From positions 32,001 to 96,000 of the forward strand of contig OZ245003.1 of NCBI GenBank assembly GCA_965223425.1: 64,000 nt of DNA. The letters are read 5' to 3'. The stretch is from Nitrosopumilus sp. (GTDB taxonomy: Archaea > Thermoproteota > Nitrososphaeria > Nitrososphaerales > Nitrosopumilaceae). A program made the position numbers and the translations under genes. The notes beneath the pieces are model-generated. The model was given only the letters and a program-made list of their open reading frames with translations, did no database searches and was not told the DNA's origin. Positions within the stretch are counted from its first letter, which is position 1. Every line of letters begins with the position of its first letter. This document shows positions 29,783 through 40,038 of the stretch, one piece after another.

Positions 29783-30857
29783 GGGGTTGTTGCCAAATTC
29801 ACCCCCATGATCTAATTTTGTGATTTTGTACACATATTGATCAGAGAGGATGTGAGTTCTCTAATGAGTGATCATAAGAGACGTGATCAGTACTGGAAGT
29901 ACTATCACGAGGCCCACACCCAAGAACTGGATTTTCTCACGTCCCATATAGTTTCTTTGATTGTGAAAAATCCGTGTCCTGTCCGGGACAGACAGTCCGG
30001 TCCTGAACGCAACCGGGTTCACAGCAGGAACAAGCTGGCATGCATCTGCATACTCATGGTATGTCTAAACTACACATACCGGGATATGGAGAACCTTGTA
30101 TCCAAGCTTAAGCTGCCGTGGGACGAACCCGTACCTGATCACACTACTGTCTCCAAGTTCATGCAAAAGATTCCTGTTGCATGGCTTGAAGATATCATTG
30201 CCTGCACGGCAGCATCGTGCCTTGCAGGATTTGATGCCTCTGATCTCACGCTGGCATCAGACAGCAGCGGCGTTGCCACTGACAGGTATGAAAGAGTGCA
30301 AAAAAAAGGCCAGAAACAGGCACAACAGGAGGCAAAGCGTCAAAAGAAATACCTGAAATGGCACGTGGCCTCGGTACTGGGCCTGCAGGTCATACTCTCC
30401 TGCCGCATCACATCCAACAAGATGGCAGATACTACCGTCTTTGCCTCGCTGCTAAAGAAGATCAAAAAGACAGGCATTGCCTTTGCAGGCAGGTTCAATG
30501 CAGACAGGGGGTATGATTCTGATAGGAACTGCAAGCTTGTCTTTGGTGCCGGCATGACCCCGAACATAAAGCAGAGGGGCAATGCCGTGAACAGATCAAA
30601 AAAGTTCAGGAAAAAGGCCGCAGGACTGTTTGACGTGGAGATCTACAAGAAACGAGGCATGATAGAGGGAATATTTGGAGCAGAGGAGACAGAAGGTCAC
30701 CGGTTGCTGTGCAGGTTCAGAAAGACATCCACAAGAAGGCGGTTTGGACTGTGCAAGACAATAGGATGGAACCTTGAGGTGTTAAACCGTTTGGAGTGTG
30801 CAGCAAGGCAGAATATTGTGGTGGTGGCAGCTTAGATGTGAATTTGGCAACAACCCC
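29783..30857 (+). mobile_element. IS5-family element (IS903/ISH1-like)
   Basis: Perfect 20-bp TIR ggggttgttgccaaattcac; 9-bp TSD cccagcacc at 29774-82 and 30858-66. Confidence 0.92.
29837..30835 (+). CDS. IS5-family DDE transposase
   Basis: PDHTTVSKF, SDSSG, KWHV, ADRGYDS, YKKRGMIEGIFG. Confidence 0.9.
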   Translation: MIREDVSSLMSDHKRRDQYWKYYHEAHTQELDFLTSHIVSLIVKNPCPVRDRQSGPERNRVHSRNKLACICILMVCLNYTYRDMENLVSKLKLPWDEPVPDHTTVSKFMQKIPVAWLEDIIACTAASCLAGFDASDLTLASDSSGVATDRYERVQKKGQKQAQQEAKRQKKYLKWHVASVLGLQVILSCRITSNKMADTTVFASLLKKIKKTGIAFAGRFNADRGYDSDRNCKLVFGAGMTPNIKQRGNAVNRSKKFRKKAAGLFDVEIYKKRGMIEGIFGAEETEGHRLLCRFRKTSTRRRFGLCKTIGWNLEVLNRLECAARQNIVVVAA

Positions 30858-31107
30858 CCCAGCACCACATTGGAGGGCGTAGGTAAAATCCTCGCCTTGC
30901 CGTTGATTCGAGGCAGAGAAAAACGCTCAAACTCCTTGTCGATATCTCTTCCAACGTTACTCTTACTTACCGCTGTAAACACTCTAGAAAATCGTAATTG
31001 CGTGTCTTTAATGGCCCGCAGATTCGCTCTTGACAATCTGCCAACACTGCCTGATTTTTGACCCCCTTTCTTAGAATCCCTGGCTGGGCCTTTTTTTTGA
31101 TTTAGTA

Positions 31108-31266
31108 TCAAAACTGCTTCATTCTCCGAATCAACCTATAGTACAGCTGGCGCACCGTGATTCTGTACCCCATGTCTTCATAATCCTCTACAATTTCTGC
31201 CATCTTGTCCAAAAGCTTCTGGCTTGAGCTCCGAAGTGACTTTGTGGCGTATGCTATCTTTGCCAT
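31108..31266 (-). CDS. 52-aa ORF resembling the N-terminal wHTH of mobile TopoVIA/Toprim-like proteins (probably truncated)
   Basis: MAKIAYATKSL...EIVEDYEDMGYRITVRQLYYRLI; stop overlaps the ART start (TTGA). Confidence 0.45.
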   Translation of the reverse strand: MAKIAYATKSLRSSSQKLLDKMAEIVEDYEDMGYRITVRQLYYRLIRRMKQF

Positions 31267-31273
31267 TAAACAA

Positions 31274-31290
31274 TACCGTAATTTACGGTA
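31274..31290. promoter_or_regulatory. Perfect inverted repeat, putative operator
   Basis: taccgtaa-t-ttacggta, 7 bp upstream of the ATG at 31266. Confidence 0.45.
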
Positions 31291-31454
31291 CTATCCTATA
31301 TGGGTTTTGGGGCAAAAAAAGGTCGGGATGATCATGTTCGAATCCGAACTCAAACGTAATTGTTGAATTCTAACCTCAACTTACCTCTGTACATGGCAAG
31401 GCCGGATTTAGACAGCAAAAATGGAGCTAATTTTGAGCTCGATAAAGTTGAGAG

Positions 31455-31528
31455 TGGGCCGAGAGAGATTCGAACTCACGATCACCGCCGTGTCGAGGCG
31501 GTATCCTAACCAGCTAGACTACCGGCCC
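31455..31528 (-). tRNA. tRNA-Val(GAC)
   Basis: GGGCCGG acceptor; CCGCC-TCGACAC-GGCGG anticodon arm; TTCGAAT T-loop. Confidence 0.92.
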
Positions 31529-31609
31529 ATTGAAAAACAAGACTAGATGCGGGATTATTAACGTTTAACAAAAGAAAGAAAGAATAAAAAGAAAGAATGC
31601 GTGAAGTAG

Positions 31610-32320
31610 TTGACAGAAAATTTTACTGAAGAAGAAAAAAGAGGTTTCTATAAAGCAATTTACTCAAGAAGAGATGTAAGATCTCATTTTATCTCAAACC
31701 CCATAGAAGATGATATTTTGTCAAAAATTCTACATGCCGCACATCATGCCCCATCAGTGGGATTTTCTCAACCCTGGAATTTTATTTTGATAAAAGATAT
31801 CGAGACGAAGAAGAAGATCAAAAAGTCTTTTGAAGAAGAAAAAGATCGCTCATCAAAATTAGTTGAGGAACCAAGGAGATCAAAATATCTCTCATTTAAG
31901 CTGGAAGGAATACTAGAATCTCCGGTAAATATTTGTGTAACATATGATCCTACAAAATTTGGTCCTTTTGTAATTGGCAGATCTAGCATTCCTGAAGCAG
32001 GACTATACAGTGTATGTTGTGCAATTCAAAATTTGTGGCTATCGGCAAGAACAGAAGGCGTAGGCCTTGGTTGGGTAAGTATTCTATCAAATGAAATTCT
32101 AAAAGAAACTTTGTCATTACCAGAACATGTTGTTCCTATCGCATACTTGTGTTTGGGATATGTTGATAAATTTGCAGAAAAGCCAGATCTTGAAACTTCT
32201 GGTTGGTTACCAAGGCTTGATCTAAAAGATGTCGTATATTTTGAAAAGTGGAATGATAAAGATAATAAAAATTGGGATGTTATTAGAGAGATGATTGAGG
32301 ATAATCTTGATTATGCTTAA
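31610..32320 (+). CDS. bluB: 5,6-dimethylbenzimidazole synthase (nitroreductase fold)
   Basis: RRDVRSHF, AHHAPSVGFSQPWNF, KLEGI, SVCCAIQNLWLSARTEGVGLGWVS, PDLETSGW. Confidence 0.93.
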   Translation: MTENFTEEEKRGFYKAIYSRRDVRSHFISNPIEDDILSKILHAAHHAPSVGFSQPWNFILIKDIETKKKIKKSFEEEKDRSSKLVEEPRRSKYLSFKLEGILESPVNICVTYDPTKFGPFVIGRSSIPEAGLYSVCCAIQNLWLSARTEGVGLGWVSILSNEILKETLSLPEHVVPIAYLCLGYVDKFAEKPDLETSGWLPRLDLKDVVYFEKWNDKDNKNWDVIREMIEDNLDYA

Positions 32321-32447
32321 ATAATTAACAGTAGTCAAATGTATACACTTAACATTAAATTTCTTTGATAAATTCTTCTTGTGATATATCTGCTTGAATT
32401 AAAATACTTTTGAGAGATCCTATATTAATTGGATTCTGTCTTCAGTA

Positions 32448-33541
32448 TACTGTCACTCAAATGTTCTTGAGGTCTAGGGACTTCCTACAGATAAACTTCA
32501 TTGCATCAAGCCCCGGCCGCGCAGTCCTGAAATACTCCGACATTGCGTGGCGCATCTGTCCCACTGTACCGTAATACTCAGAGACCAACACGTCGCGTTT
32601 TGACTGGTGCCAGTATTCCTCTGTAACGCTGAGCTCGGGAGTTGCAGTCGGAAGCCATATGACCTTGACGTTCTTGTTTCCCTTTAGGAATTTGCTTACA
32701 ATTATTCCCTTGTGCTGCGGCGCGTTGTCCATTATTATGGCCACCTTTCCAAAATGCCTTGCCAATTCCTTCAAGTATTGCAGTACGGTCTCCTTGTCGA
32801 ATTTGTCGTACGTCCGGAAGAACTGCCTGCCGTCAATCCCGATGGAGCCATACGCCACAACCCTGCCGTGCCGTCCCTTGTACGTCGTTATGATCGGCTG
32901 GCCCTCAGGCGACCAGTACTTTGCGCCGGATGTCGGGTCGTCGATGAAGATGGCCTCGTCAAATACCACGACGGCAAAACCCAGTTTTTTCAGGCGTGAA
33001 ATCTGCCTTTTTGCGCTGCGCTGCCATTTTTTGATCTCGTCGATCTCTGCCCTGTTGATGTGGATTCGCCGTACCGTCTTGGCAGTCAGGCCGAGTTTGC
33101 GCATTATCTTTCTGACGTTTGTGATGTGGTACTTTACGCCGTACTTTTTGCAGATGTCTTCTCTTAGCTGCATGGGAGCGATGATGCTGTCAGTCTTGTA
33201 TAACATCTTTTCAATCTTTTTGAGTTTGACCTTTGGCGGCCTTCCGCTCTTGGGAAGATCCCGGAGGGCGTCTATGCCGCCCTCCCTGAAGCGTTCCACC
33301 CAGAAGGAGACCCAGTTCGGGCACTGCATGAGCGAGTCTGCTACATGTTGAATGCTTTCATTGTTCATGCACACCATGTTTACTGCGGCCATCCTCTTGA
33401 CCACCTTGGGATCCCTCTCTTTCTTGTACGCCTTCCTGAGGTCTTCCGGTTTTGCTGCTGGCATTGTAATGCGTGGTACTAGGTGATCAAAATGTATTAC
33501 CATCTAACATGTTTGACCTCAAGAACTTTTGAGTGACAGTA
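32448..33541 (-). mobile_element. IS630-family element (copy 2, intact)
   Basis: TIRs tactgtcactcaaa(t/a)gttcttgag; TA duplication at 32446-47 and 33542-43. Confidence 0.92.
32457..33503 (-). CDS. IS630 transposase
   Basis: HTH, GRPPK, FDEA, MDNAPQH, PELSVTEEYW; likely start ATG at 33464. Confidence 0.92.
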   Translation of the reverse strand: MVIHFDHLVPRITMPAAKPEDLRKAYKKERDPKVVKRMAAVNMVCMNNESIQHVADSLMQCPNWVSFWVERFREGGIDALRDLPKSGRPPKVKLKKIEKMLYKTDSIIAPMQLREDICKKYGVKYHITNVRKIMRKLGLTAKTVRRIHINRAEIDEIKKWQRSAKRQISRLKKLGFAVVVFDEAIFIDDPTSGAKYWSPEGQPIITTYKGRHGRVVAYGSIGIDGRQFFRTYDKFDKETVLQYLKELARHFGKVAIIMDNAPQHKGIIVSKFLKGNKNVKVIWLPTATPELSVTEEYWHQSKRDVLVSEYYGTVGQMRHAMSEYFRTARPGLDAMKFICRKSLDLKNI

Positions 33542-33703
33542 TAGTTGGGATTGTACCGTTCCAAAACAGCCCACAAATCACCCGATAGGCGGTGGTCACC
33601 TGGCATACACACATGCTACAAACACGCAGATTATCCTGTTTAAAACACCGGCAAGTGTCACATGATATCTTTGTCTGCCCACCGTGCGACGCAGGTCTAT
33701 CCA

Positions 33704-34864
33704 TAGTAAGTATATAAAAAAACTGAATCATTTTGACAATTATTTTTGGCCAAAAGATCCAAGATCAGCCATACCGCACGCACCTACATGTACAAACAAA
33801 AAAAGAGACAGGTTGCAAGGGGAGCAAAATTTCTGCCAAACACCGGCCGTTGCAGACCTCAAAAAGGCATACAAAAAAGAGACTGATCCCAGAAGACGTG
33901 ACAGGCTGCTTGCGTACATGCAGCGCAAGGACGGCGTGCCGCTAGACAAGATCGGAGGGATGCTAGGAAGGCCCAGGTCAACCATATCTGCATGGCTCAA
34001 CCGCGCACAAGACGAGGGAATGCGCGCAAGATTCGAGCGCAGCGGTAGGGGACGAAAGCACCTGCTAGACGGGCCGCAGGCAAAACAGCTTGCAGCAGAC
34101 CTGGATGCAGGCCCGGAGTCATGCGGCTTTGAGAGCAGCTTGTGGGATTCCAACCTAGTAAGGCTGCACATCAAGAGAAAGTTTGGCGTGCAGTACAGCA
34201 AGACAGGCGTGCTGCAGCTGATCAGGGAGACGGGCTTTTCGTGGAGCAAGGCGCGTCCAAAAAACCCAAGATCAGCCTCAAAAAAAAGAGCAAAAAAAGT
34301 TTCAGGAGCGGGCAAAAAAACCCGTTGCAGAAAAGTCGGCGCAGGGATACGCCGTACTGGCCGGCGATGCATCCTCGATTCAAAAGGCATCAAACAGGCC
34401 CGGCTACGGATGGAGAAGGCGCGGCAAGCGCGCCACATCCACCCCCCCACTCTGTTTTGTCACGCAAGAGAAGATACATCTTTGGAGTCCTGTCAGCAAG
34501 CGCATTTTACTTTATGTCTTATGAAGAGTCAAACAGCGACAGCTTTTGCAGCTTTTTGGAACGGGTTCACAAAAGATTTGGCAGGGTGGTGGTGGTGCTG
34601 TTTGTAGACAATGCGTCATATCACAAATCCAAAAGGGTAAAGGAGTTTCTGGAAAAATACAATGACGGGATAGTTCTGGAGTACCTGCTGCCGTACACGC
34701 CGGAGCTTAATCCCATTGAGACGCAGTGGATGGTGATAAAACGGGTACTGTCTGCAAAGGTGTTTGGCACGCTAGGTGGGATGGAGCAGTCAGTACGTCG
34801 TATGCTGTTTGCCAGAAAGGAGATTCTGCCTGTGAAAATGTTCAGTTATTTAATGTGCTAACTA
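33704..34864 (+). mobile_element. IS630-family element (distinct type) with frameshifted transposase
   Basis: Imperfect TIRs tagtaagtatataaaaaaactgaa and tagttagcacattaaataactgaa; HTH part in ORF 33684, LAGDASS in a third frame, DNASYH and PYTPELNPIE in ORF 34142. Confidence 0.85.
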
Positions 34865-35002: not shown

Positions 35003-35188
35003 ATGGGGAAATCAAGTGCCCCGTTTTTGACAAGAGTAGCAAAGGCCAACACTTCAGACTCGTTAAGAACTACTATACCAAAAGAAATCGTTAGAGAATT
35101 TGATCTTAATGCACATGATGTTTTGGTCTGGCAAGTGAATAAGAAAACCAATGAATTTATTATAAAAAAATGGAGTGGCAAAACATGA
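35003..35188 (+). CDS. AbrB/MazE-family small DNA-binding protein
   Basis: SLRTTIPKEIVREFDLNAHDVLVW; stop overlaps the MTase start (ATGA). Confidence 0.85.
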   Translation: MGKSSAPFLTRVAKANTSDSLRTTIPKEIVREFDLNAHDVLVWQVNKKTNEFIIKKWSGKT

Positions 35189-36294
35189 ATAGAATAATGA
35201 CCCATACACAAAAACGAAGATCTACAAGAACACCCGGAAAAAAATTAACAATCCAAACAATCCAGAATGTCTCAAATCCAACATCGATACATGGAATATA
35301 TCCATACCGTGGAAAAATATCTTCAATTGATGTAATAAATGTAATATCTCAGATGGCATCAGGTAAAAAATTATTAGATCCGTTTTGTGGGACTGGTACC
35401 ATAGTCTATGAAGCATACAAAAAAGGTCTTGATGTAGTGGGAGTAGATCCAAACCCCCTTGCTAGGATTATCACTAATGGTAAAATGAATCTTCGTTTTG
35501 TTAATAGTAAATCTATATATGTCGAAGTAGAGAAATTAATCAAAAAGACTCAAACTACTAATAAAAAAAATAAATGCCCCGCAAATATTAGATGGGCATT
35601 TCATAAAAAAACAATGCACCAGATAATGCAAATGGCTTCATTATATGATGAAATGTCTGATTACATAAAGGCGGTTTTTTGTGGAACTATTTGTTTGGCT
35701 GCACGAGGATGTAATCATTACAAGTGGACATCTACTGCTGTTGGAAAAAATATCACACCTAAAAGATATATTGATTTTTATGAAAAATTTAGAACAAAAT
35801 CAAAAAAACATTATTTGCCATTAAAAGATGATCACAGTGCAGAAATACATCAAAAAGATTCACGTATGTTGTCGAGTTTTATTAAACCAAAATCAATAGA
35901 TTATGTTTTTACTAGCCCACCATACTTTGATGCGTTAGATTACACAGCATATTATGCAAGATTTGTATTTCCAATTTTAGGAATTGATCGTGATTCAGTA
36001 AGAAAACAACTCGTACAATCTATCAAAACATACGAGGAAGATATGAAACTATGTCTCTCAGAGATAGAACAAGTTACAAAAGATGATGCCATGATAATTT
36101 TTGTTGTGGGTGACAAGAAAATTAAAAATAATATCATAAACGGTGGAGATTTTTTCTCAAAAATGTTTTCACATCGCCCAACAAAGATAATTGAACGAAG
36201 CTACAAAGGATCAGCCAGCAAAGTTTTTGATATATTAAATAAAACTAATCGAAAAGAACAGATCGTGATATGGGATAAATCAGAGTGGAGATAA
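35185..36294 (+). CDS. Amino-DNA methyltransferase (m4C/m6A), alpha-like motif order
   Basis: IHGIYPYRGK, LDPFCGTGT (motif I), later FTSPPY (motif IV). Confidence 0.9.
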   Translation: MNRIMTHTQKRRSTRTPGKKLTIQTIQNVSNPTSIHGIYPYRGKISSIDVINVISQMASGKKLLDPFCGTGTIVYEAYKKGLDVVGVDPNPLARIITNGKMNLRFVNSKSIYVEVEKLIKKTQTTNKKNKCPANIRWAFHKKTMHQIMQMASLYDEMSDYIKAVFCGTICLAARGCNHYKWTSTAVGKNITPKRYIDFYEKFRTKSKKHYLPLKDDHSAEIHQKDSRMLSSFIKPKSIDYVFTSPPYFDALDYTAYYARFVFPILGIDRDSVRKQLVQSIKTYEEDMKLCLSEIEQVTKDDAMIIFVVGDKKIKNNIINGGDFFSKMFSHRPTKIIERSYKGSASKVFDILNKTNRKEQIVIWDKSEWR

Positions 36295-37134
36295 TTGGCA
36301 GATTTTTTTATTAAAGATAGTACATTCATGGACGAAGTAAAAGATGCGTCAGTAAGCCTTATAATAACTAGTCCGCCATATTTTGATCTTAAAAACTATG
36401 ATCAAAAGAAAATGAATAAAAATCAAATCGGTTCATCTAAATCATATGATGATTATTTATCAAAACTGAACGCTGTGTGGAAAGAATGTGTTAGAGTTTT
36501 GATCCCAGATGGTAAATTATGCATAAACATCATGCCTCTTTTTTTATCAGGTCATGAAACTGAGTTTAAAAGAAGAGTTACAAAATTAATGATTACCGAT
36601 TTAGAAGACTTCATGGATTCCACAAAAAAAATGTTTACACATGCTTTATTTATTTGGGACAAGAGGAAAATCGTAAGATTTAGCTCATTTGGGAGTTATC
36701 CATACCCACCAAATATTTTTTCAACATTTCCCTTTGAATGGATCATAGTGTTTTCAAAAAAAGGAAAAAGGCCGAAAGTCACATCTAAAATAAAAAAGAA
36801 ATCAAAACTAACTACTAAAGAATGGCAGGATTGGGCAATCAATTCAGTATGGGAGATGAGCCCCGCAAAAGCAAAATCACTTGGCCATCCTGCACCATTT
36901 CCAGAGGAGTTGCCTCATAGATTAATCAAAATGTTTAGCTTTTATGGTGAAATTGTACTAGATCCATTCATGGGGACTGGGACTACTGCTCTGGCTACGG
37001 AGAAATTAGGAAGGCGTGCAATAGGATATGAAATTAATAACAAATATGTCAAAATTGCTAAAAAAAGATTACTTGAAATTTCTAATGAAGAACCTGTGAA
37101 GACGTCTTTATCTCGTTCGATAAAGGTTCTATGA
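36295..37134 (+). CDS. Amino-DNA methyltransferase (m4C/m6A), beta class
   Basis: ITSPPY, then HPAPFPEELP, VLDPFMGTGTT, IGYEIN. Confidence 0.93.
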   Translation: MADFFIKDSTFMDEVKDASVSLIITSPPYFDLKNYDQKKMNKNQIGSSKSYDDYLSKLNAVWKECVRVLIPDGKLCINIMPLFLSGHETEFKRRVTKLMITDLEDFMDSTKKMFTHALFIWDKRKIVRFSSFGSYPYPPNIFSTFPFEWIIVFSKKGKRPKVTSKIKKKSKLTTKEWQDWAINSVWEMSPAKAKSLGHPAPFPEELPHRLIKMFSFYGEIVLDPFMGTGTTALATEKLGRRAIGYEINNKYVKIAKKRLLEISNEEPVKTSLSRSIKVL

Positions 37135-38113
37135 CATATTTGCCATTATTTACTTTTACGACTCCAGCAGTTAGCAATCCAAGCACATCTGGAGAGTTAA
37201 ACACCTGAGGAAAGAATTTATCCCAACATATCTTTCTATCATTAATAATTCCGTTCATTGCAAGAATCCATATTGCATTTGCTGAAATGAATTTGATTTT
37301 ATGTTTTATGATATCCTTATAAAATTTTTCAGATTGATCTCCTATTTTTGTAGTACAATCCCTGTGTGAAGGAGGGAAGAGATGTGTTTCCTTTCCACCA
37401 ATGACTAGAAAAATATAAAAAATTAAATTAACTTTGTTGGCATCAAAATATTCACTGATCTGTCTTTCACATTCTTTAGCATATTCTGGAATCTTCTCTC
37501 TGTATCTCTCATCATCCATCATGGATAGAAAGTTTGTTTTTGTTTCAAAAATCAATACATTAGAATTGCTACGTATACACATATCTAATCTGTTAGGTCT
37601 TGAAGAATTTGGTGTGTCTATTTCTATCTCCGTTCCAATTATCGGATTATTATTTGAGCTTAAAAATTTGAGCATAGATGTAACCCACAATGCAATGTGT
37701 GTAGTTTCATCAGTGCACGTAAAACATTCTAAACTAAAAAAATTCCTTTGGAATCCGCCATATGTTGGAAGTTCAATTCTATTTCCTGTAAAGATACAAT
37801 CTATGTTTTGAATATTTCTAACTGTATCAGTTTGAGTAAATAATTGATTTAATAATTCTGTTTTTATTGGCTCATCAATAGTACGAAATGATTCTTTTGA
37901 GGTAATGCATGAAAGACAACCTATGCATTTTTTTTCATTGATAGTGATGACACCATCGTGAATTTCCAAAGCTTCTATGTCTGTACTACATGTAGGGTAT
38001 TCTCTATTTTGTTCAATATTATCAGATAAAAAATTTAAAAATTGTTTGTTGATGGGGCGGTTAGAATATCGTGGAATATTGAATCTAGATTCTAAGTAAT
38101 TACTGATGCTCAT
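37082..38113 (-). CDS. [4Fe-4S] ferredoxin-like domain fused to a PD-(D/E)xK nuclease (putative restriction subunit)
   Basis: TCSTDIEAL...INEKKCIGCLSC; GTEIEI...RLDMCIR...IFETK. Confidence 0.7.
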   Translation of the reverse strand: MSISNYLESRFNIPRYSNRPINKQFLNFLSDNIEQNREYPTCSTDIEALEIHDGVITINEKKCIGCLSCITSKESFRTIDEPIKTELLNQLFTQTDTVRNIQNIDCIFTGNRIELPTYGGFQRNFFSLECFTCTDETTHIALWVTSMLKFLSSNNNPIIGTEIEIDTPNSSRPNRLDMCIRSNSNVLIFETKTNFLSMMDDERYREKIPEYAKECERQISEYFDANKVNLIFYIFLVIGGKETHLFPPSHRDCTTKIGDQSEKFYKDIIKHKIKFISANAIWILAMNGIINDRKICWDKFFPQVFNSPDVLGLLTAGVVKVNNGKYVIEPLSNEIKTSSQVLH

Positions 38114-38114
38114 T

Positions 38115-39311
38115 TTATAACAGCTTTTCCGTTATTTCCTGCACTTTTGGTATTAATTCCGGTGGAGCACCTGTCTGAAGAACTTTCAAATTAATTTGAG
38201 TCAGAGGTTTTAAATTACCATTATTCGTTGTAAATGGAATACCTGCAATTCCTGCTATTTCTCTTTCTTTTTCCATTACTTCCAAAAATTTATTTTGATT
38301 GATTATAAAATCATTCGGATGTTCTGATAGCAAGTCGACAAATTTTCTAAAATTCATAGATTTATGTTCTTTAGCAATTTGTCCAAGACAATACACTAGA
38401 GCAAACCTTCGATTCTTAACTATACCATCATATTGCAATGACATACTTCGAGTTATTTGTTGTCCTCGTTCTCTTAATGATTTAACCGATTTTGTAAGCC
38501 CTGAATAATGTAGTGGTCGTTCAACTTTAGAAGTACCATCAAAAAGAGTTGGAGGTATTAAAATATCATAATTGTGATCAGGCCAGTTTTTTCTTTCTAC
38601 AAAGTCTCTCATTTCTACATGCCATTTTAGCATATTATTTGGTTTTTTGTAATTAGAAGGCATCACAAATCCGGCAGTCGTAGCCCAAGCAAATAATGCT
38701 GATCTTGTTCTTGTAAGGGTATCTTTCTTCGAACCGGTAGATAGTCTGACAAGTTCGCCTTCTGAAGATCTCATAGTTTCATCAGTGTTGGGAAATCCCA
38801 AACTAATTTTTGATTTTAATACTTTATTTGAACCATTTATACTCTTTTTTTGAATGCTGTGTAATAACCCAATAAACGGGCCATATTCCAAAACTGCTTT
38901 CCTAATAATCTTAAGCCACTCTTCTGAATCAAACTTACAACGTGCAAAACTTCTTCCCATATCCGTCAGTTCTAAATCATTTTCCGTCCTATTGATAAAC
39001 CCTAACCCATCTAATGCGTTAACAGCATCACTAGCTGATTTACTTTTTTGTGTATCTAGTTGAATGCTTTGTGTCAAATAACATTTTGCTTTACTTAATG
39101 GGTTGTCCAAATATGGGCATACTTCTGTTTCTAGTGAGGGTTTTTGTATTAAAAGATCACAAAAATCTGTAATGTTGGACTTCGATTCAGCATCATATTT
39201 TATATCCCTAATTGAAAATTTGCTTTGATTGAATTTCTTGTTTAATGTTTGTGTTAACGCATGAAGACAAATCAATCGCCCAGTTGGATTTCGATTTATT
39301 AAAATTGCCAT
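38115..39311 (-). CDS. Hypothetical protein, putative wHTH DNA-recognition subunit
   Basis: SASDAVNALDGLGFINRTENDLELTDMG wHTH wing and a second TRSALFAWATTAGFV segment; no clear PD-(D/E)xK motif. Confidence 0.6.
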   Translation of the reverse strand: MAILINRNPTGRLICLHALTQTLNKKFNQSKFSIRDIKYDAESKSNITDFCDLLIQKPSLETEVCPYLDNPLSKAKCYLTQSIQLDTQKSKSASDAVNALDGLGFINRTENDLELTDMGRSFARCKFDSEEWLKIIRKAVLEYGPFIGLLHSIQKKSINGSNKVLKSKISLGFPNTDETMRSSEGELVRLSTGSKKDTLTRTRSALFAWATTAGFVMPSNYKKPNNMLKWHVEMRDFVERKNWPDHNYDILIPPTLFDGTSKVERPLHYSGLTKSVKSLRERGQQITRSMSLQYDGIVKNRRFALVYCLGQIAKEHKSMNFRKFVDLLSEHPNDFIINQNKFLEVMEKEREIAGIAGIPFTTNNGNLKPLTQINLKVLQTGAPPELIPKVQEITEKLL

Positions 39312-39330
39312 CTAAAATCATATCATCATT

Positions 39331-40038
39331 TCAAGTAAAAAACATCTTTTCCAAATTAGGTTCTTTTCCATCTATCTTATCTTTTAAGACTTTCCATGCT
39401 TCTTTTATTGTTAAAATTTTGAAATTGTTTTCTTGTTTCAACATTGCTATATGTTCATTAACTAGCTCATCATTATTCTCGTGTATGGTCATTGGAACTA
39501 TGACTATTTTTGGAATTCTATAGTTATTCTTTTTTATCAATTCTACTATATCTGTTAACACATTTATTCCATGTTCGATATCATTAAATGAATTAACTAC
39601 TTTTACAATAATTGGTTTTTTATTAATTATCATTAATAATGGAATTTTTTTATAACGATATCCGCCTTTAACTTTTACTTCAAAACCACATAAATTATTT
39701 TGTGAGTTACCTGTAAATACCAATCCCAACCATGTTGTTAGAAATTTTTTATCACTCATTATGTATTTAGCAAATTTGATAAAAGAATCGGATTCTTCTT
39801 GAAAATTAATAAATTTTTTACACGAATATGCACATAATAAACAATCAACACATCTTTCTTGATTTACCCTGTGCTTATCTAATTCTAATGCATCTGTAGG
39901 ACAAGTGAGGATGTCTTCACATCGCATATTTCTTTTATTTAAGAAATTGATGTATGTTCCATCCACAAGAATATTATGTTTAGAATAATCTATCATATTA
40001 TGTATCTTTGAGGCTTTTTCTTTATCGATGTATATCAT
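39331..40038 (-). CDS. [4Fe-4S] ferredoxin-like domain fused to a degenerate PD-(D/E)xK fold
   Basis: TCPTDAL...VNQERCVDCLLCAYSC; C-terminal half aligns by eye with ORF 37082 but lacks the catalytic D/E/K. Confidence 0.65.
   Translation of the reverse strand: MIYIDKEKASKIHNMIDYSKHNILVDGTYINFLNKRNMRCEDILTCPTDALELDKHRVNQERCVDCLLCAYSCKKFINFQEESDSFIKFAKYIMSDKKFLTTWLGLVFTGNSQNNLCGFEVKVKGGYRYKKIPLLMIINKKPIIVKVVNSFNDIEHGINVLTDIVELIKKNNYRIPKIVIVPMTIHENNDELVNEHIAMLKQENNFKILTIKEAWKVLKDKIDGKEPNLEKMFFT

Follow-up and report, generated by a model that had tools for sequence, protein, structure and literature searches.

The five-gene locus and its paralogous nuclease domains

The stretch of DNA analyzed here, 64,000 nucleotides of Nitrosopumilus sp. 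(contig OZ245003.1, positions 32,001 to 96,000 of the forward strand), is referred to as the window, and all positions are counted from its first letter. Between 37082 and 40038 on the minus strand, a first-pass annotation made from the letters alone had proposed two iron-sulfur (Fe-S) proteins, an active nuclease and its catalytically dead paralog. The region contains three closely spaced genes, not two, and two DNA methyltransferase genes run towards them from the plus strand. Their products will be referred to as the short, middle and long subunits and the two methyltransferases:

39331..40038, minus strand: short subunit, 235 amino acids (aa); N-terminal half-ferredoxin cysteine domain and degenerate FokI-like nuclease domain
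38115..39311, minus strand: middle subunit, 398 aa; putative sequence-recognition subunit with a four-cysteine site
37082..38113, minus strand: long subunit, 343 aa; N-terminal half-ferredoxin cysteine domain and intact FokI-like PD-(D/E)xK nuclease domain
36295..37134, plus strand: DNA methyltransferase, 279 aa; N6_N4_Mtase with SPPY motif (Pfam PF01555, E 7.6e-47; PADLOC MTase_II, E 1.7e-70)
35170..36294, plus strand: second DNA methyltransferase, 374 aa; motif order I then IV, SPPY motif (Pfam PF01555, E 8.4e-10; PADLOC MTase_II, E 3.7e-18)

We read this locus, with a probability of roughly 60%, as a five-gene module encoding a split FokI-like Type IIS restriction enzyme that has one catalytic site per trimer and accessory Fe-S clusters. 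The middle gene starts 19 nucleotides past the end of the short gene, and a codon check placed the start codon of the long gene one base past the stop of the middle gene. The short-middle-long operon and the two methyltransferase genes are convergent, and the 3′ ends of the long gene and the gene for the 279-aa methyltransferase overlap by 53 bp (37082-37134). Since this overlap leaves no room for a terminator, the two transcripts may collide or pair. Comparable 3′ overlaps were seen in other convergent loci, for example L008 and L010.

A set of 86 related loci was assembled, to which a metagenome scan with the middle protein contributed 80 and a scan of viral contigs one. All five genes were present in 66 of them, in two orders: 38 loci showed the convergent arrangement of the window and 28 carried methylase-methylase-short-middle-long on one strand. 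Among the 20 incomplete loci, 18 would have the missing genes past a contig end, the exceptions being L028 and L086. Linkage of nuclease genes to methyltransferase genes, as in Type II restriction-modification systems, is thus a regular property of these loci and supports the long and short proteins as parts of a five-gene restriction-modification module rather than a free-standing pair. None of the three operon proteins matched a PADLOC family, and none matched a Pfam or NCBIfam family beyond sub-threshold ferredoxin matches and, for the middle protein, a PF09821 match exactly at the cut-off; the NCBIfam matches were weak, ferredoxin-type only and far under their cut-offs.

The residues on which the comparison of the long and short proteins turns are located as follows:

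37538..37708, minus strand: catalytic residues E136, E162, D177, E190 and K192 of the long protein (75/75; codons checked)
39595..39642, minus strand: degenerate catalytic positions P133, K146 and V148 of the short protein (codons checked)

Analysis of the long family (74 homologs from the related loci plus the window, 75 sequences) revealed that E136, W143, E162, R172, R175, L176, D177, E190 and K192 are each present in all 75 members. The acidic residue on beta2 and the (D/E)-x-K on beta3 that define PD-(D/E)xK nucleases correspond to D177, E190 and K192, and the family adds two more invariant glutamates to this complete site. The AlphaFold2 model of the long protein (predicted local distance difference test, pLDDT, 85.3; predicted template modelling score, pTM, 0.89) shows a helix at 136-150, strands at 158-165, 174-182 and 185-192, a further helix and a strand at 231-238, which together form the alpha-beta-beta-beta-alpha-beta core of the restriction-endonuclease-like fold. 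In an exhaustive structural comparison the top 20 matches of this model were nearly all nucleases of that fold, and the cleavage domains of FokI and BspD6I ranked first for the long and the short models alike. A Foldseek search of the PDB with the long model returned nothing at E≤0.001, and its weak rows (E 0.005 or weaker) were nucleases of the same fold. At the sequence level the relationship to FokI disappears: searches of the PDB gave no meaningful match for the long or the short protein, neither protein matched a Pfam FokI family at E≤1, and hhalign of the long family against one FokI-like protein (locus L089 of genome G481) reached 0.2%, a comparison made with a single protein, as a FokI_D1 gene was found in 2 of 401 Bacillota genomes, too few for a family profile. 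These data support the prediction that the long subunit is a nuclease and carries the only intact PD-(D/E)xK site of the module.

The long and short proteins are paralogs over nearly the whole length of the short protein. For the pairwise profile comparison that had been suggested as a check, hhalign aligned long 11-284 with short 14-217 at 96.3% (E 1.7e-9, 193 columns, 62 versus 62 sequences). With the cysteine domains removed, the nuclease domains alone still aligned at 83.9% (E 7.7e-6, 116 columns), and smaller profiles of 13 versus 5 sequences, the numbers of long and short relatives obtained by word-based searches, gave 91.6%. Moreover, the long-family profile matched the short gene in the window's own genome with E 2.1e-5. 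For the N-terminal cysteine region the relationship is visible even between the single sequences (BLASTP E 8e-7; local score 81 against 27.5 ± 5.0 in shuffled sequences, with 0 of 2000 shuffles as high).

The strings quoted in the first-pass annotation were all found in place when the codons were checked. In the long protein these are IALW (140-143), RPNRLD..FETKTNF (172-195) and IKFISANAIW (273-282), and in the short protein LTTW (100-103), RYKKIP..IVKVVNSF (128-151) and FKILTIKEAW (206-215). The alignments keep the register of the annotation and match IALW with LTTW, TEIEI with FEVKV, RLD with KIP, and FISANAIW with ILTIKEAW. The shared C[S/P]TD..AL motif is likewise present, except that its spacer differs, CSTDIEAL in the long protein standing against CPTDAL in the short one. 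The proposed replacement of the catalytic D, E and K by P, K and V proved correct in the ungapped alignment, in which D177, E190 and K192 face P133, K146 and V148. Both hhalign runs that reach the ExK stretch (62 versus 62 sequences, and nuclease domains only) place a gap there, and the 13-versus-5 run stops just before it; the pairing of E190 with K146 and of K192 with V148 therefore follows from the ungapped register and from the beta2/beta3 hairpins of the two models, which are displaced by an equal offset of 44 residues.

Examination of the short family (79 homologs from the related loci plus the window, 80 sequences) showed the loss of the motif. A [DE]xK at 146-148 occurs in none of the 80 members, and position 148 is never K. 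The short protein therefore does not qualify as an active PD-(D/E)xK member: on beta3 the window's copy reads K146-V-V148, with P133 at the position of the beta2 acid, so that it lacks all three motif residues, and the whole family lacks the ExK pair. Because the short subunit shares the fold without the motif, it is best described as a degenerate member of the fold family. Thus the central claim of the first-pass annotation, an active nuclease with a dead paralog, agrees with both the profile paralogy and the ExK counts of 75/75 and 0/80. "Catalytically dead" fits the window's copy but may be too strong for the family, which retains an acidic residue at 133 in 50 of 80 members (D in 40, E in 10 and P in 30) and K146 in 79.

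This conservation might be explained by a working second nuclease with a non-canonical site made of E120, D/E133 and K146. The enzyme would then be a BspD6I-like heterodimer with two active sites, in which the window's P133 copy has lost activity or uses K146. Invariant R128 (80/80), together with K146, the acid at 133 and E120 (54/80), suggests a functional surface. In R.BspD6I, the structural analog nearest to the module, the small subunit likewise possesses a catalytic site, which is functional only within the complex (PMC3017599). However, an acid-x-Lys pair is found in none of the 80 sequences, the ungapped register puts a lysine at the place of the metal-binding acid and a hydrophobic or small residue at that of the catalytic lysine, and proline occupies 133 in 30 members, the window's copy included. 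We therefore consider a second active site very unlikely. K146, which takes the place of the metal-binding glutamate, probably has some function.

A profile of nine short-family sequences searched against 1.84 billion representatives retrieved 199 proteins at E≤0.001, of which 88 also passed E≤1e-10; generic proteins with a ferredoxin motif make up the weaker matches. In three proteins of about 315 aa (P0206, P0214 and P0226) the Fer4 motif scores high enough for the Pfam cut-off (23.3 bits), and the nuclease-like domain combines C-terminal features of the long family (SSNALW, GE.E) with a centre of the short type (RLE ... CKF). They may represent an intermediate family of Fer4-nuclease fusions; no viral locus was found for this side family.

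Cysteine motifs and the middle subunit

All three subunits carry clustered cysteines:

39820..39903, minus strand: short cysteine motif, C46-P, C63xxC66xxC69 and C73 (codons checked)
37907..37990, minus strand: long cysteine motif, C42 and C63xxC66xxC69 (codons checked)
39081..39269, minus strand: middle-subunit cysteines C15, C51, C65 and C77 (codons 39267-39269, 39159-39161, 39117-39119 and 39081-39083; checked)

In the short family C46 is conserved in 86 of 93 sequences, C63, C66 and C69 in 89 and C73 in 60. The CxxCxxC of the long family is present in 67 of 75 members, whereas C42 is found in only 14 of the 75, although it is nearly invariant in the 13 closest relatives; other clades have cysteines elsewhere in the N-terminal region. 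Both proteins thus show the ligand pattern of Fer4 (PF00037), a CxxCxxC with a distal Cys that is often followed by Pro, and both correspond to only half of a two-cluster ferredoxin domain. The cysteine regions matched ferredoxin-type models only, all under their cut-offs. In 7Fe ferredoxins, which are among the weak PDB matches, the [4Fe-4S] cluster is surrounded by this pattern of a distal Cys-Pro and a CxxCxxC(xxxC).

Comparison of 62 systems showed the CxxCxxC in both proteins in 28 cases, in the long protein only in 26 and in neither in eight. Where the long protein alone has the motif, it contains 8 to 10 cysteines, except in L011, which is cut at a contig end, and the short protein is usually a nuclease-like domain of 145-156 aa. 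Some clades have 8 to 12 cysteines arranged as in two-cluster ferredoxins. The middle protein follows its partners. Of the 54 systems with a CxxCxxC in the partners, 53 show CCCC at its four positions and the 54th is cut at the N-terminus; of the eight systems in which both partners lack the motif, seven show S[FY]DF and one CSCC. This suggests that the middle-protein cysteines form a third metal site of the complex.

A quick maximum-likelihood tree of the middle proteins placed the seven S[FY]DF systems in one well-supported clade, sister to the small clade of the window. As they form a single clade, the pattern is explained by one joint loss and not by repeated co-variation. Joint loss of all cysteine sites in three proteins argues that the sites work together and that they are dispensable for the core reaction, and because one clade lost them in all three proteins we regard the cysteine motifs as accessory. 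The first-pass assignment of Fe-S ligand motifs to both proteins can be kept as far as the half-ferredoxin motif is concerned, but with eight of 62 systems lacking the CxxCxxC in both proteins, the motif is not an essential one. The cysteine-free clade consists of L025, L027, L029, L030, L032, L037 and L041, with long proteins of 276-293 aa and short proteins of 181-195 aa, and it provides a natural cluster-free control.

The cysteines might alternatively bind zinc, or nothing at all, and serve as structural knuckles without any Fe-S chemistry. Scores for Fer4 below the Pfam cut-off, the rarity of a cysteine at position 42 of the long family and an entire clade devoid of these cysteines would all be compatible with this. 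On the other hand, the CxxCxxC with distal Cys-Pro is the pattern of ferredoxin [4Fe-4S] sites, the only family matches of the region are to ferredoxin-type models, the related P0206 does reach the Fer4 cut-off, and clades with 8 to 12 cysteines resemble two-cluster ferredoxins. We therefore consider zinc or an empty site unlikely; [4Fe-4S]-type clusters are the most likely ligands of the cysteines in all three subunits.

The middle protein is represented by 102 full-length homologs of about 395 aa with many invariant basic and polar residues; neither fused nor split forms turned up in the length range that was searched. A protein-language-model search ranked a cluster of FokI recognition domains second (0.92, 188/256 features), with clusters of AlwI and BpuJI recognition domains lower. 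FokI_dom_2 was matched by only one of 39 middle homologs (E 0.088), and a PDB profile search with the middle family gave 0 matches at E≤10. Since the sequence tests failed to confirm the FokI lead, we infer the recognition role from position, size and conservation together with the language-model result, and propose the middle protein as the putative sequence-reading subunit.

Complex model and proposed mechanism

To model the complex, the long, middle and short proteins were folded as three chains with alignments of 62 rows each in the same locus order, the short protein being the scored partner. The interaction prediction score from aligned errors (ipSAE) was 0.70 (runs 0.71, 0.64 and 0.70), compared to 0.00 for the best of three controls. 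In the calibration of the tool, 0.70 was reached by 58 of 80 solved complexes and by 2 of 110 mismatched pairs, a yardstick that holds only roughly for the trimer because own alignments and three chains were used. The runs agreed in at least 80% of the contacts, and the pLDDT of the partner was at least 82. These values express how confident the prediction is and do not amount to measured binding.

Two sets of contacts were predicted. Residues 125-127, 149-163 and 190-196 of the short protein touch residues 168-171, 202-206 and 258-263 of the long protein. As these are the helices after beta3 and beta4 in both proteins, the interface is pseudo-symmetric. FokI cleavage domains dimerise through the corresponding helices. 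In addition, the cysteine domain of the short protein (15-20, 41-54 and 59) contacts the middle protein at 57-61 and 70-73, a region that adjoins C65 and C77 and in which N70-P71-L72 is nearly invariant.

A number of observations weigh against the reading proposed here. As single sequences, the nuclease domains of the long and short proteins are not more similar than chance (score 32 against 30.4 ± 5.0; 718 of 2000 shuffles scored at least this high), even though their best local alignment follows the register given in the first-pass annotation. The acid at 133 and K146, retained in 50 and 79 of the 80 short-family members, could belong to a non-canonical active site instead of a dead one. Fer4 scores of 15.8 bits for the long and 18.7 bits for the short protein lie below the 21.1-bit cut-off and place neither in the family. 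The loss of cysteines in three proteins is a matter of one clade and hence one event, plus one long-branch case. Alignment of the middle family with one FokI-like protein (L089) gave an hhalign value of 6.4% over a single winged-helix-like stretch, which does not confirm the language-model lead. The reported contacts of the trimer are those of the short protein, none being given for the long and middle proteins. Finally, with an unrelated protein in the position of the middle subunit, the ipSAE fell to 0.00 and the short protein was not placed. This last result therefore supports a trimer in the modelled form but not a free dimer of the long and short proteins. The heterodimer suggested in the first-pass annotation is accordingly retained in its short-long contact and replaced, as an assembly, by a three-part unit that includes the 398-aa middle protein.

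Paralogy, motif loss, the linkage of the genes and the shared presence and loss of the cysteines are borne out by the sequences and the models. For the roles of the subunits, their stoichiometry, the identity of the metal and the choice between nicking and cutting, we propose the following scheme. The two methyltransferases would protect the host DNA, probably by modifying one strand each of an asymmetric site, and the middle protein would bind this recognition site. The long protein would cut by means of the site formed by E136, E162, D177, E190 and K192. The modelled packing of the short on the long protein and the docking of its cysteine domain near C65 and C77 indicate that the short protein would take the part of the second cleavage domain, without which a FokI-type domain is not active. 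It would act both as the obligatory inert pairing partner of the long nuclease domain and as a tether to the recognition subunit. With one active site per trimer, either one strand would be nicked, or a double-strand break would be produced by two trimers or in two successive events. The putative Fe-S clusters might hold the subunits together or gate their assembly, a structural or regulatory function.

The same interface would also suit a brake. Here the short protein would sit as an inhibitor on the dimerisation helices of the long nuclease until released by site binding, by the redox state of the cluster or by loss of methylation. Besides the predicted contacts between the helices after beta3 and beta4 of both proteins, the part of PMC4081073 accessible to us describes how FokI is kept in check by sequestration of its cleavage domain. 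The short gene is nevertheless the first of the operon and is present as 79 open reading frames in the 86 loci, with one clear absence (L086), which fits a stoichiometric core subunit as well as a brake, and sequence alone cannot tell activation from inhibition. A brake appears rather improbable to us, and the inert pairing partner remains the preferred role.

More speculatively, and in our view unlikely, the restriction complex might be redox-wired. Clusters on the reader (C15, C51, C65 and C77), the nuclease and the pseudo-nuclease would then form a chain of three or more within electron-transfer distance, and redox state, oxygen, iron supply or charge passed through the DNA would switch cutting. 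Restriction would in that case be coupled to the redox state of the cell; to our knowledge, redox-coupled cutting has been described for no restriction enzyme.

Genomic setting and comparison with known systems

The module is sporadic. Among 101 genomes related to that of the window it was detected in one, the window's own, and among the sampled Bacillota genomes in 2 of 401. Matching gene order was found in Clostridium tyrobutyricum, Haloimpatiens, a Clostridia metagenome-assembled genome (MAG), an uncultured bacterium and an Omnitrophota MAG, the last cut at a contig end. Searches with the middle protein by tblastn gave no match in plasmid or phage collections. A contig from a viral collection (locus L088) carries the complete five-gene module in the convergent layout, which shows that a virus or provirus can serve as its vehicle. 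The components evolve at very different rates: identity to the copies at L003-L007 is 67-71% for the 279-aa methylase, 48-53% for the 374-aa methylase, 34-38% for the middle protein and 33-42% for the long protein, and for the short protein, where detectable, 22-26%. The Bacillota genome G481 contains a classical FokI-like system (a 593-aa enzyme and a methylase, L089) and, on another contig, a middle gene of the module.

In the window the module adjoins a mobile-element patch (29837-34861) with a guanine-plus-cytosine content of 44-45%, compared to 30-32% in the module:

29837-30835: DDE_Tnp_1 transposase gene
31455-31528, minus strand: tRNA gene
32457-33503, minus strand: intact IS630-type DDE_3 transposase gene
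33684-34607 and 34142-34861: second IS630-type copy, split in two frames

A 61-aa AbrB/MazE-like (SpoVT-type) gene at 35003-35188 (Pfam E 6.4e-5, slightly under the cut-off) overlaps the start of the gene for the 374-aa methyltransferase. Its product could be a local controller; as a member of the module it was rejected, since 0 adjacent homologs were found in the other loci.

The neighbouring IS630-type transposase genes would be in line with a function other than restriction, namely a nuclease complex for repair, recombination or element mobility, with the methyltransferases as unrelated neighbours. The transposase genes are, however, outside the conserved gene set. Both methyltransferases accompany the three operon genes in those 66 of 86 loci, in either order and across Clostridia, Omnitrophota and many metagenomes, and the scattered occurrence is that of restriction systems. 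A role apart from restriction is thus extremely unlikely, and a restriction-modification module remains our interpretation.

If the interpretation is right, the locus encodes a natural FokI-like cleavage module with a built-in dead partner, which amounts to a natural design for a strand-specific nickase. Recognition, cleavage and pseudo-cleavage would be distributed over three separate proteins, and the module would offer a test case for the function of Fe-S clusters in DNA enzymes. In practical terms, a new specificity would be gained, and perhaps a new nicking enzyme as well. Furthermore, in Clostridium tyrobutyricum, where the module is also present, it may act as a barrier to transformation.

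A literature search at the level of abstracts, with REBASE and the supplements of papers outside its range and the existence of database-only annotation left possible, found no restriction enzyme with an Fe-S domain, and the word "iron" is absent from a 2014 survey of Type II enzymes. Although restriction enzymes rank with the most thoroughly studied proteins, a widespread three-part restriction system with Fe-S motifs thus seems to have gone undescribed. Its logic is that of ordinary restriction-modification; the subunit architecture, with an active nuclease, a dead paralog and a separate reader, and the set of cysteine clusters are what is undescribed.

A likeness exists to Cas4, which also joins a PD-(D/E)xK nuclease with a cysteine-ligated Fe-S cluster. 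AddB, Dna2 and Exo5 are further PD-(D/E)xK nucleases with such a cluster. In Cas4 and these three enzymes, four cysteines flanking the nuclease core staple the nuclease domain itself, whereas the cysteines of the module belong to a ferredoxin-like half-domain of their own at the N-terminus, with more sites on the partner subunits.

Type IIS systems with asymmetric sites are described in PMC3017599 and PMC4081073 as having two methylase activities, and the two methyltransferases and the separate putative recognition subunit of the module fit a Type IIS character. In R.BspD6I the large subunit is a nicking enzyme, and the small subunit is a duplicate of its catalytic domain (PMC3017599). The large subunit, Nt.BspD6I, unites the recognition domain with one cleavage domain in a single chain, and each of the two subunits has a working catalytic site. 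In the module, a third protein would be responsible for recognition, the ExK pair is missing from the short subunit, cysteine-cluster domains are added, and there is no match at the level of sequence. Its short subunit, being without the motif, likewise sets the module apart from BspD6I, BtsI and BsrDI as enzymes with two active subunits.

The cleavage domain of FokI, which has a single site, shows no activity by itself and depends on pairing with a second cleavage domain (PMC4081073). FokI consists of one chain, without cysteine clusters, and two active domains come together in a transient homodimer, in contrast to the module, which is split into three proteins. A further comparison is with mixed dimers of FokI. 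Passages of PMC3017599 report that wild-type FokI mixed with a catalytic mutant nicks one strand, and, as cited there and in PMC4081073 (Sanders et al. 2009), a dimer with one inactive subunit uses its single active site to nick one defined strand, which is what would be expected of the long-short pair. Those FokI dimers are made with laboratory mutants, whereas the inactive partner in the module would be a natural, separately encoded and conserved gene.

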